NCBI RefSeq assembly: GCF_054482595.1
Contig: NZ_CM137008.1
Length of the DNA stretch: 64,000 nucleotides
Reading direction: 5' to 3' (one strand)
Below, in pieces: positions 9,745 to 33,040 of the stretch. Each line of letters begins with the position of its first letter. The stretch's first letter is position 1. The notes under the pieces were generated by a model. It saw only the letters and a program-made list of their open reading frames with translations. It ran no database searches and had not been told where the DNA came from. The position numbers were made by a program, and so were the translations under genes.

Positions 9745-9824
9745 GCCCGATGCGCTGCGCTTATCGGGCCTACATGTCGCACGAACTATGTAGGCCGGAT
9801 AAGGCGTTCACGCCGCATCCGGCA
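9745..9824. repeat. REP/BIME element (two inverted REP copies) between hycI and ascB
   Basis: gcccgatgcgctgcgcttatcgggcctaca ... tgtaggccggataaggcgttcacgccgcatccggca, the canonical E. coli REP consensus in inverted pair. Confidence 0.85.
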
Positions 9825-23653: not shown

Positions 23654-23686
23654 CCTGTAGGCCTGATGAGCGTAGCGCATCAGGCA
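23654..23686. repeat. REP element between srlD and gutM
   Basis: cctgtaggcctgatgagcgtagcgcatcaggca matches the REP consensus; an adjacent 9-bp-stem hairpin lies at 23701..23723. Confidence 0.75.
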
Positions 23687-27900: not shown

Positions 27901-28398
27901 ATGACTGACAGTGAACTGATGCAGTTAAGCGAACAGGTTGGGCAGGCGCTGAAAGCCCGTGGCGCAACCGTAACAACTGCTGAGTCTTGTACCGGCGGTT
28001 GGGTAGCGAAAGTGATTACCGATATTGCCGGCAGTTCCGCCTGGTTTGAACGCGGATTTGTCACCTACAGTAACGAAGCGAAAGCGCAAATGATCGGCGT
28101 ACGCGAAGAGACGCTGGCGCAGCATGGCGCGGTGAGCGAACCCGTCGTGGTGGAAATGGCGATAGGCGCACTGAAAGCGGCTCGTGCTGATTACGCCGTG
28201 TCTATTAGTGGTATCGCCGGGCCGGATGGCGGCAGTGAAGAGAAGCCTGTCGGCACCGTCTGGTTTGCTTTTGCCACTGCCCGCGGTGAAGGCATTACCC
28301 GGCGGGAATGCTTCAGCGGCGACCGTGATGCGGTGCGTCGTCAGGCTACTGCGTATGCATTGCAGACCTTGTGGCAACAATTTCTACAAAACACTTGA
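27901..28398 (+). CDS. pncC: PncC (YgaD), NMN amidohydrolase / CinA-like (165 aa)
   Basis: MTDSELMQLSEQVGQALKARGATVTTAESCTGGW, CinA C-terminal domain family; start taken at ATG 27901. Confidence 0.9.
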   Translation: MTDSELMQLSEQVGQALKARGATVTTAESCTGGWVAKVITDIAGSSAWFERGFVTYSNEAKAQMIGVREETLAQHGAVSEPVVVEMAIGALKAARADYAVSISGIAGPDGGSEEKPVGTVWFAFATARGEGITRRECFSGDRDAVRRQATAYALQTLWQQFLQNT

Positions 28399-29539
<1,141 letters not shown>

Positions 29540-29733
29540 TCGTTCGTTATTGATGATAATAGATAATGTGTGCACGGACGGTCCCCTCGCCCCTTTGGGG
29601 AGAGGGTTAGGGTGAGGGGAACAGGCCAGCACTGGCGTGAAAAATTACTCTCACCTCGATCCTCTAACGAATTGGGCCTGCGGGAACATTCTGCACACTC
29701 ATTGACTATTAAATCTGTTTATCAGCAAAACCT

Positions 29734-29763
29734 GGGTCGCATCTGCGGCCCTTTTGCTTTTTT
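29734..29763 (+). terminator. Intrinsic terminator after recA, immediately upstream of recX
   Basis: Hairpin gggtcgc-atct-gcggccc followed by TTTTGCTTTTTT, ending 19 nt before the recX ATG. Confidence 0.7.
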
Positions 29764-29781
29764 AAGTTGTAAGGATATGCC

Positions 29782-30282
29782 ATGACAGAATCAACGTCCC
29801 GTCGCCCGGCATATGCTCGCCTGTTGGATCGTGCGGTACGCATTCTGGCGGTGCGCGATCACAGTGAGCAAGAACTGCGACGTAAACTCGCGGCACCGAT
29901 TATGGGCAAAAATGGCCCGGAAGAGATTGATGCCACGGAAGAAGATTACGAGCGCGTTATTGCCTGGTGCCATGAACATGGCTATCTCGATGACAGCCGA
30001 TTTGTTGCGCGCTTTATCGCCAGCCGTAGCCGCAAAGGTTATGGACCTGCGCGTATTCGCCAGGAACTGAATCAGAAAGGTATTTCCCGCGAAGCGACAG
30101 AAAAAGCGATGCGTGAATGTGACATCGACTGGTGCGCACTGGCGCGCGATCAGGCGACGCGAAAATATGGTGAACCTTTGTCAACTGTCTTTTCAGAAAA
30201 AGTTAAGATCCAGCGTTTTCTGCTCTATCGTGGCTATCTGATGGAAGATATCCAGGATATTTGGCGAAATTTTGCCGACTGA
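29782..30282 (+). CDS. recX: RecX, RecA inhibitor (166 aa)
   Basis: ORF-track protein [36 protein letters not shown] recognised; position directly after recA. Confidence 0.93.
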
Positions 30283-30409
30283 ACGCATACGGTATTTTAC
30301 TTCCCAGTCAAGAAAACTTATCTTATTCCCACTTTTCAGTTACCAGCCCGGCGGTTAAGACACGCTGGAGCTGGTGGCGATATTTCGTTAGCTTGATTTC
30401 AGGATAATT

Positions 30410-33040
30410 ATGAGCAAGAGCACCGCTGAGATCCGTCAGGCGTTTCTCGACTTTTTCCATAGTAAGGGACATCAGGTAGTTGCCAGCAGCTCCCTGGTAC
30501 CCCATAACGACCCAACTTTGTTGTTTACCAACGCCGGGATGAACCAGTTCAAGGATGTGTTCCTTGGGCTCGACAAGCGTAATTATTCCCGCGCTACCAC
30601 TTCCCAACGCTGTGTGCGTGCGGGTGGTAAACACAACGACCTGGAAAACGTCGGTTACACCGCGCGTCACCATACCTTCTTCGAAATGCTGGGCAACTTC
30701 AGCTTCGGCGACTATTTCAAACACGATGCCATTCAGTTTGCATGGGAACTGCTGACCAGCGAAAAATGGTTTGCCCTGCCGAAAGAGCGTCTGTGGGTTA
30801 CCGTCTATGAAAGCGACGACGAAGCCTACGAAATCTGGGAAAAAGAAGTCGGGATCCCGCGCGAACGTATTATTCGCATCGGCGATAACAAAGGTGCGCC
30901 ATACGCATCTGACAACTTCTGGCAGATGGGTGACACTGGTCCGTGCGGCCCGTGCACCGAAATCTTCTACGATCACGGCGACCACATTTGGGGTGGCCCT
31001 CCGGGAAGTCCGGAAGAAGACGGCGACCGCTACATTGAGATCTGGAACATCGTCTTCATGCAGTTCAACCGCCAGGCCGATGGCACGATGGAACCGCTGC
31101 CGAAGCCGTCTGTAGATACCGGTATGGGTCTGGAGCGTATTGCTGCGGTGCTGCAACACGTTAACTCTAACTATGACATCGACCTGTTCCGCACGTTGAT
31201 CCAGGCGGTAGCGAAAGTCACTGGCGCGACCGATCTTAGCAATAAATCGCTGCGCGTAATCGCTGACCACATTCGTTCTTGTGCGTTCCTGATCGCGGAT
31301 GGCGTAATGCCGTCCAATGAAAACCGTGGTTATGTACTGCGTCGTATCATTCGTCGCGCAGTGCGTCACGGTAATATGCTCGGCGCGAAAGAAACCTTCT
31401 TCTACAAACTGGTTGGTCCGCTGATCGACGTTATGGGCTCTGCGGGTGAAGACCTGAAACGCCAGCAGGCGCAGGTTGAGCAGGTGCTGAAGACTGAAGA
31501 AGAGCAGTTTGCTCGTACTCTGGAGCGCGGTCTGGCGTTGCTGGATGAAGAGCTGGCAAAACTTTCTGGTGATACGCTGGATGGTGAAACTGCTTTCCGT
31601 CTGTACGACACCTATGGCTTCCCGGTTGACCTGACGGCTGATGTTTGTCGTGAGCGCAACATCAAAGTTGACGAAGCTGGTTTTGAAGCTGCAATGGAAG
31701 AGCAGCGTCGTCGCGCGCGCGAAGCCAGCGGCTTTGGTGCCGATTACAACGCAATGATCCGTGTTGACAGTGCATCTGAATTTAAAGGCTATGACCATCT
31801 GGAACTGAACGGCAAAGTGACCGCGCTGTTTGTTGATGGTAAAGCGGTTGATGCCATCAATGCAGGCCAGGAAGCTGTGGTCGTGCTGGATCAAACGCCA
31901 TTCTATGCGGAATCCGGCGGTCAGGTTGGTGATAAAGGCGAACTGAAAGGCGCTAACTTCTCCTTCGTGGTGGAAGATACGCAGAAATACGGCCAGGCGA
32001 TTGGTCACATCGGTAAACTTGCTGCGGGTTCTCTGAAAGTGGGCGACGCTGTGCAGGCTGATGTTGATGAGGCTCGTCGCGCCCGTATTCGTCTGAATCA
32101 CTCCGCAACGCACCTGATGCATGCTGCGCTGCGCCAGGTTCTGGGTACTCATGTATCGCAGAAAGGTTCACTGGTTAACGACAAGGTGCTGCGCTTCGAC
32201 TTCTCACACAACGAAGCGATGAAACCAGAAGAGATTCGTGCGGTCGAAGACCTGGTGAACGCACAGATTCGTCGCAATTTGCCGATCGAAACCAACATCA
32301 TGGATCTCGAAGCGGCGAAAGCGAAAGGTGCGATGGCGCTGTTCGGCGAGAAGTATGATGAGCGCGTACGCGTGCTGAGCATGGGCGATTTCTCCACCGA
32401 GCTGTGTGGCGGTACTCACGCCAGCCGCACTGGTGATATTGGTCTGTTCCGCATCATCTCTGAATCGGGTACTGCTGCAGGCGTTCGTCGTATCGAAGCG
32501 GTAACCGGAGAAGGTGCTATCGCCACCGTTCATGCAGACAGCGATCGCTTAAGCGAAGTCGCGCATCTGCTGAAAGGCGATAGCAATAATCTGGCTGATA
32601 AAGTGCGCTCAGTACTGGAACGTACGCGTCAGTTAGAAAAAGAACTACAACAGCTTAAAGAACAAGCTGCCGCACAGGAGAGCGCAAATCTTTCCAGTAA
32701 GGCAATTGATGTTAATGGTGTTAAGCTGTTGGTTAGCGAGCTTAGCGGTGTTGAGCCGAAAATGTGGCGTACCATGGTTGACGATTTAAAAAATCAGCTG
32801 GGGTCGACAATTATCGTGCTGGCAACGGTAGCCGAAGGTAAGGTTTCTCTGATTGCAGGCGTATCTAAGGACGTCACAGATCGTGTGAAAGCAGGGGAAC
32901 TGATTGGTATGGTCGCTCAGCAGGTGGGCGGCAAGGGTGGTGGACGTCCTGACATGGCGCAAGCCGGTGGTACGGATGCTGCGGCCTTACCTGCAGCGTT
33001 AGCCAGTGTGAAAGGCTGGGTCAGCGCGAAATTGCAATAA
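30410..33040 (+). CDS. alaS: AlaS, alanine-tRNA ligase (876 aa)
   Basis: [24 protein letters not shown]..., class II aaRS motifs and the C-terminal editing/C-Ala domains; length matches AlaRS. Confidence 0.97.

Follow-up and report, generated by a model that had tools for sequence, protein, structure and literature searches.

The long recA–recX spacer of Escherichia coli: a conserved recA terminator beside an inserted BoxC/PIT/TMECO repeat

The recA–recX interval of Escherichia coli K-12 contains a termination site, and the mRNA that reads through it from recA into recX amounts to 5–10% of recA mRNA, a figure that applies to the short K-12 allele of the spacer only (Pages et al. 2003, as cited in PMC6662834; also cited in PMC3062782). 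In this leaky terminator (Pages, Koffel-Schwartz and Fuchs, DNA Repair 2003), SOS induction of recX is achieved via the recA promoter and its level is held low by termination, a logic that the locus described here would share.

The second system that bears on this locus is a family of dispersed repeats known as BoxC since the 1990s (Bachellier et al.); Hoyne et al. (2000) described its members as PIT elements, for potential intrastrand triplex, and Holder et al. (2015, PMC4666352) as TMECO. At five K-12 loci, a type A motif of this family faces an inverted type B motif (PMC4666352). According to Holder et al. (PMC4666352), the position of TMECOs is unrelated to gene function or to the distance to genes, TMECO loci are more variable from strain to strain than control loci, and there is no association with mobile elements; the same authors propose that TMECO loci are unstable, and count 25–30 TMECOs in strains such as IAI1, 55989 and E24377A, 10–11 in O157:H7 and 1–2 in strains such as CFT073 and UTI89 (their Table S1). 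The tests performed with PIT elements by Hoyne and Maher, in the form in which PMC4666352 reports them, detected neither promoter nor terminator activity, and RNA polymerase was unaffected. In vitro, TMECO oligonucleotides fold into a stable triplex; the guanines of another TMECO, footprinted with DMS in vivo, were unprotected. No transposase is known for a BoxC-type repeat, and the older name “RSA” (152 bp) may denote the paired BoxC element. The review by Delihas (2008) mentions neither the RSA nor the BoxC name.

Two other kinds of repeat have to be considered. REP and BIME elements located between tandem genes, such as REP325 in yjdMN, are likewise structured, strain-variable repeats in the 3' UTR of the upstream gene of a co-oriented pair; REP elements make the message of the first gene more stable and attenuate that of the second, and have been described as combined stabilisers and partial terminators (REP325 preprint, bioRxiv 10.64898/2026.03.23.713779), while BIMEs stabilise upstream genes by means of an RNA-stabilising 3' end (PMC9023263). 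E. albertii carries a REP pair at the exact place considered here, between recA and recX. However, REP/BIME is another sequence family, and stabiliser and terminator activities are known for its members, whereas none has been shown for BoxC. Between recA and recX, attenuation is already the work of a dedicated intrinsic terminator. The ERIC/IRU miniature inverted repeats are similar in size (150–190 bp), form a long imperfect palindrome, are intergenic and are polymorphic for presence or absence; the recA–recX insert of E. coli differs from them in showing no clean target-site duplication.

The window, that is, the whole stretch of DNA that was analysed, comprises 64,000 nucleotides of contig NZ_CM137008.1 (RefSeq assembly GCF_054482595.1). 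Its positions 29440–29860 (421 bp) are 100% identical to E. coli O145 RM9872, with recA and recX annotated on both sides, and the species of the window is E. coli. The features of the locus are collected in Table 1. An earlier note on this sequence had reported a spacer of 242 bp after recA, with a hairpin and T-run ending 19 nt before the recX ATG; the spacer is indeed delimited in this way by the recA stop codon and the recX start, and both the coordinates of the hairpin and T-run (29734–29763) and their distance to the ATG are correct. The spacer is the second longest among 78 species representatives of the Enterobacteriaceae, for which the median is 69.5 bp, and its predicted fold beats those of 200 out of 200 shuffled sequences (z = −5.0). 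It is made of two unrelated parts that stand side by side, a conserved terminator on the 3' side and a repeat insertion on the 5' side.

Table 1. Coordinates in the window of the features of the recA–recX region.
Feature	Position	Strand	Remarks
recA promoter, TTGATA-16-TATAAT	28395–28422	+	11/12 hexamer matches; overlaps LexA box
LexA box, tactgtatgagcatacagta	28399–28418	+	sequence read directly
recA CDS	28478–29539	+	353 aa; RefSeq annotation of the identical stretch is WP_000963143.1
recA stop codon, TAA	29537–29539	+	read from sequence
recA–recX spacer, long allele	29540–29781	+	242 bp; E24377A spacer also 242 bp
BoxC/PIT/TMECO composite palindromic repeat, inserted	29546–29733		~185 bp; ends approximate within ~5 bp; filled/empty-site alignment and other copies
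Long imperfect hairpin from the two insert halves, recA 3' UTR RNA	29557–29711	+	folding prediction
TMECO ‘type A mm’ motif, CCCTCGCCCC-TTT-GGGGAGAGGG-TTA-GGGTGAGGGG	29584–29619	+	pattern match
Inverted partner arm, eroded (former type B BoxC)	29649–29688	−	consensus comparison
recA intrinsic terminator, hairpin 29734–29751 then TTTTGCTTTTTT	29734–29763	+	scan, conservation, folding
recX Shine-Dalgarno AAGGA (29771–29775) and ATG (29782–29784)	29771–29784	+	read from sequence
recX CDS	29782–30282	+	166 aa

The 3' part of the spacer (29734–29781) reads as the standard enterobacterial arrangement, in which a Rho-independent terminator is followed, within 18 nt, by the ribosome-binding site and ATG of recX. 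The hairpin, GGGTCGC-ATCT-GCGGCCC, has a stem of 7 bp with six GC pairs and a loop of 4 nt; the U-run lies directly 3' of it, and the predicted ΔG of the core is −12.3 kcal/mol. The hairpin GGGTCGCATCTGCGGCCC, the T-run, the Shine-Dalgarno sequence and the start of recX are the same, base for base, as in K-12. The support for this terminator comes from conservation, since the consensus scan by itself is no better than chance (two sites in 2.2 kb against 2.5 expected). A scan of our own found a hairpin with a T-tail in 77 of 78 enterobacterial recA–recX spacers, and the sole spacer missed by its threshold, that of Salmonella arizonae, has the same hairpin followed by the tail TTTTGGCA. In 75 distinct sequences, pairing holds for 98.4% of the stem cells and covariation is seen at one pair (UA/UG/CG), while most pairs are invariant and hence uninformative on covariation; these values come from explicit pair counting, and RNAalifold gave no structure for the 75 terminator regions, the gaps in the loop breaking the alignment. 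Purine-rich motifs also line up 5' of the recX start codon across the aligned enterobacterial sequences. Among the species representatives, the distance from the hairpin to the recX start is short (20–50 nt, with a median of 27), whereas that from the recA stop codon to the hairpin goes from 14 to 973 nt, so that all the length variation lies 5' of the hairpin. The second T-run (29758–29763) shows a small polymorphism in the U-tract of the leaky terminator, with six T in the window and in CFSAN064036 and five in O157:H7, E. whittamii, E. albertii and the GTDB representative of E. coli.

As for the promoters, the LexA-controlled recA promoter is the only good promoter-like site that the scan found upstream of recX. 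One weak promoter-like site was found inside recA (28965–28992), and neither the spacer nor the 3' portion of recA contains any. Besides these sites, the scan for promoters and terminators gave only the hairpin and one weak site after recX, and the spacer has no second terminator-like site. When the spacer is inspected by eye, the hexamer TTGACT at 29703–29708 has no usable −10 hexamer at 16–18 bp, and two GATAAT hexamers, at 29553 and 29561, have no partner at a usable spacing. These results agree with the earlier claim that recX has no obvious promoter of its own, and the dependence of recX on read-through, which had been deduced from it, is supported by the promoter scan together with the published termination site of K-12. 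Given that termination and read-through have been published for K-12 and that no promoter was found between the recA promoter and recX, the read-through reading appears to be right: recX would be made only from LexA-controlled recA transcripts that read through the hairpin, and this would keep RecX inducible by SOS and far below RecA.

The spacer of the window is one of two forms that exist in E. coli. A total of 1634 of the 5426 complete E. coli genomes (30%) have the long one, with 99–100% identity, and the sampled remainder match 55% of the query, i.e., they are without the insert. K-12, O157:H7 and CFSAN064036 have spacers of 67–68 bp with an identical terminator. In this short form the hairpin begins 20 nt (TCGTCTTGTTTGATACACAA) past the recA stop codon, as is the case in K-12, against 194 nt in the window, while in alignments with the three strains the two forms agree at the end of recA and from the hairpin onwards as far as recX. 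The short form is taken as ancestral and the long form as the product of an insertion, because the spacer measures 66–73 bp in 49 of the 78 species representatives and that of K. pneumoniae resembles the sequence of the E. coli short allele; ~70% of complete E. coli genomes, and almost all other Enterobacteriaceae, have no such insert here. The proteins RecA WP_000963143.1 and RecX WP_000140506.1 occur both with the long allele (E24377A) and with the short one (O157:H7), and the RecA protein is the same in all the alleles checked. The coding sequences are uncoupled from the insert.

The filled site lacks ~16 bp of the empty site, which are replaced by the insert (CTTGTTTGATACACAA in the short allele), and there is no clean target-site duplication. 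A MITE mobilised by a transposase was considered in view of the inverted arms and was rejected, since such a duplication is missing. A REP/BIME identity was discarded as well, the REP consensus being absent from the spacer. REP-like palindromes (GCCTGATGCGCTACGCTTATCAGGCCTAC) do occur elsewhere in the window, at 9745–9773 on the + strand with three mismatches and at 23657–23685 on the − strand with one.

The insert is a member of the known BoxC/PIT/TMECO family and is not unique to the recA–recX locus. When used as a lone query, it typically matches 15 places in an E. coli genome (median), and of the 70,165 places in total 70,137 are chromosomal. It aligns over ~190 bp with copies at yggL–yggN, yijF–gldA and gcvP–ygfF, and it also aligns with the K-12 TMECO pairs at hrpB–mrcB, fepB–entC, alx–sstT and lldD–trmL over the core of these pairs; the other copies whose loci were retrieved are intergenic, and the alignments show that copies of the family differ by indels. 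The recA–recX copy resembles the five K-12 pairs in being intergenic and dispersed and in having a type A arm that faces an inverted second arm, but its partner arm is eroded. This copy is in fact already catalogued. It is TMECO no. 91 of Table S8 of Holder et al. (2015), located at 2,983,331–2,983,296 in E. coli E24377A, and it falls between recX and recA, given that in this genome recX occupies 2,982,633–2,983,133 and recA starts at 2,983,376, with a spacer of 242 bp. Holder et al. do not discuss the genes that neighbour copy no. 91, nor do they comment on its location within the transcribed 3' UTR of a highly expressed SOS gene, ahead of the terminator.

The number of places matched by the repeat differs between genomes: there are only 2–4 in O145 strains and about 20 in B7A and O111:H11. 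O145 still has the recA–recX copy despite its few repeats, and the region may have been imported by recombination.

The earlier note had described a GC-rich imperfect palindrome at 29581–29620. The string that it quoted is present, although it is a 39-mer whose true end is 29619, one base shorter, and it is not a simple palindrome. The TMECO pattern (CCCTCNCCC N3–6 GGGNGAGGG N3 GGGNGAGGG; Holder et al. 2015) has a single match in the 64 kb, at 29584–29618 and on the + strand only, and none in 100 shuffled sequences, and the 36-mer 29584–29619 is identical to nos 7, 11 and 15 in Table 1 of PMC4666352, which are K-12 ‘type A mm’ entries. The supposed palindrome thus consists of one C-block and, 3' of it, two G-blocks, to either of which the C-block is complementary. 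To judge by its sequence, such a layout is a potential intrastrand triplex. The G-rich half (29597–29619), GGGG-AGA-GGG-TTA-GGG-TGA-GGGG, has the canonical form of a four-run G-quadruplex, and this stretch belongs to the non-template strand of the DNA and, in the RNA, to the recA 3' UTR. The G-quadruplex was raised by Holder et al. as an in vitro competitor of the triplex (PMC4666352).

The partner arm has fared differently. While the left arm (29581–29620) agrees with the family consensus throughout (40 of 40 positions), the partner arm does so at 27 of 40; among the other copies, the right arm is ~95% alike, and in the recA–recX copy it is 35% diverged. The minus strand of the window has no match to the TMECO pattern, and the search of Holder et al. 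scores this copy as a solo motif because the partner arm no longer fits. Nevertheless, the layout and flanks of the paired form (type A facing inverted type B) align with paired copies over ~190 bp, and the copy is best read, from its sequence, as a decayed pair. The erosion is old, given that Escherichia sp. E1V33 (sequence L008, 1259–1500) has the same BoxC allele with the eroded arm included. Simple neutral decay does not explain the asymmetry between the two arms; selection against a perfect long palindrome is one guess as to its cause.

The spacers of other lineages have been occupied in different ways. Escherichia sp. MOD1-EC7003 (L010, 479–1500) has a spacer of 1022 bp with a further decayed BoxC, followed by REP units and repeated copies of the hairpin. 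The REP pair of E. albertii (L012, 1263–1500) is preceded by a decayed second copy of the terminator hairpin, and this BIME form was found in none of the 5426 E. coli genomes. E. albertii and the long allele of E. coli share the right junction, TCAGCAAAACCT-GGGTCGC, and an outer motif, GATGAYAA ... GTTTGTCAGCAA, is common to the BoxC copy and the E. albertii BIME, the right-hand extension being present in four of eight aligned family copies. The spacer of Silvania confinis (L021, 1306–1500) presumably contains an ERIC-like element, to judge by the ERIC consensus, and we take three spacers (L021, 1306–1500; L068 and L074, 1352–1500) to contain full and partly deleted ERIC/IRU look-alikes between recA and the terminator. 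This variety of repeats in the Escherichia lineages and in Silvania confinis points to the stretch between the stop codon and the terminator as a recurrent landing place for repeats, which fits the finding that TMECO loci are more variable than control loci (Holder et al.).

It could be thought that the motif acts at the level of DNA, i.e., that the C-G-G arrangement on the non-template strand of a strongly induced gene forms a triplex or a G-quadruplex during transcription and that rearrangement or stalling of the polymerase follows. Such an effect would be in line with the identity of the motif to the kind of sequence that forms a stable triplex in vitro, with its four G-runs, with the strain variability of TMECO loci and with the different repeats that the spacer carries in different Escherichia lineages. 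However, the variability of repeat loci may be mere gain and loss of repeats, the guanines were not protected at the TMECO footprinted in vivo, and the 1634 genomes with the long allele show hardly any variation in it, with recA and recX intact on both sides. Taken together, these observations make a DNA-level effect very unlikely.

At the level of RNA, the two halves of the insert are predicted to fold into a long imperfect hairpin. Its outer arms of 30 nt are 70% complementary, the RNA ΔG over 29557–29711 is −69.8 kcal/mol and the z-score of the DNA is −3.6. Being 5' of the terminator, the insert is transcribed with recA and belongs to its 3' UTR. By analogy with REP elements, a 3' UTR hairpin of 155 nt could change the decay of recA mRNA.

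The insertion has also altered the foot of the terminator stem. In most enterobacterial recA terminators, the AA located directly 5' of the GGG stem pairs with the first two Us (alignment columns 15 and 16 form A–U in 57 and 63 of 69 sequences, respectively). K-12 has these two As, whereas the window has CT (29732–29733), and the same CT is found in E1V33 and E. albertii. An upstream GCAAAA can pair with UUUUGC instead (local context −19.0 vs −16.6 kcal/mol, predicted). With CT in place of AA and this alternative pairing, the efficiency of the terminator could differ, in either direction. Chen et al. are said to have reported in 2013 that the A-tract contributes to termination strength, and for this reason too a small change in efficiency is possible, again in either direction.

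These features have to be weighed as a possible tuning element, in which the 3' UTR hairpin and the replacement of the A-tract would alter the stability of recA mRNA or the read-through, and with them the RecX:RecA ratio. The insert is co-transcribed with recA upstream of the terminator, its predicted hairpin is strong, the conserved AA has been lost from the long allele, the allele is 99–100% identical across 1634 genomes, and at like positions REP elements act as stabilisers and partial terminators and BIMEs stabilise upstream genes. On the other hand, the terminator core, the T-run and the Shine-Dalgarno sequence are unchanged, and the predicted local context of the terminator differs by just 2.4 kcal/mol. 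The published PIT/BoxC tests, as related in PMC4666352, saw no terminator, promoter or RNA polymerase effect, the position of TMECOs bears no relation to gene function or gene distance (Holder et al.), and 70% of E. coli genomes do without the insert. We regard a tuning function as unlikely, and it is quite improbable that the insertion is non-neutral in the sense that the 155-nt hairpin and the replaced conserved A-tract shift recA mRNA stability or read-through.

The strength of the whole-spacer fold against shuffled sequences, the TTGACT hexamer and the presence of ORFs of 71 and 51 aa that overlap the insert might also suggest a dedicated cis-regulatory RNA (attenuator, riboswitch or protein-binding site), or an insert with a recX promoter or a small gene. 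Yet a scan of 28300–30500 on both strands against Rfam 15 gave no match at E ≤ 1, no site in the spacer passes the promoter scan, TTGACT has no usable −10 partner, and a promoter within the insert would still meet the terminator. As for the ORFs, neither has a Pfam match, and the copies of the family vary by indels. Moreover, the sequence in question is a dispersed repeat that stands beside unrelated genes, and the locus is without it in 70% of E. coli and in nearly all other genera. An element of this type is extremely improbable.

The passenger reading was adopted on the grounds that the Rfam, promoter, terminator and Pfam searches gave no signal, that the PIT tests were negative as reported and that TMECO position has no link with function: in the recA 3' UTR, the insert most likely behaves as a passenger. 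The locus as a whole is very probably a conserved recA terminator together with an inserted BoxC repeat that is tolerated in this role. The insert would be transcribed with the recA 3' UTR and would fold there into its long imperfect hairpin, would add no promoter or terminator, and would change the RecA:RecX ratio mildly at most, leaving the hairpin, the T-run, the Shine-Dalgarno sequence and both coding sequences untouched. It may have landed between the stop codon and the terminator because few other places would accommodate a repeat of this kind without harm. A reading of the length and GC-rich structure of the spacer as part of the regulatory design of recA–recX is not supported, since the structure belongs to a dispersed repeat, ~70% of E. 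coli have no copy at this locus, and the terminator and its distance to recX are unchanged.

The feature is real but ordinary, and both of its halves are already known: the control of recX by termination and read-through was established in 2003, independently of any extra spacer length, the repeat family has been known since the 1990s, and the exact copy appears in a published table. Two corrections follow for the biology of E. coli. The first is that the “long structured spacer” is not to be taken for the regulatory design of the operon. The second is that studies of recA–recX expression in K-12 deal with an allele whose 3' UTR is 174 bp different from the one found in about one third of E. 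coli genomes. If the insertion were non-neutral after all, ~30% of E. coli, including O145, O111, ETEC B7A and E24377A, would have a heritably different RecX:RecA ratio, and a set-point of SOS induction and recombination unlike that of K-12-like strains. If the two alleles do differ in RecX output, they would constitute a simple natural variant in SOS control.
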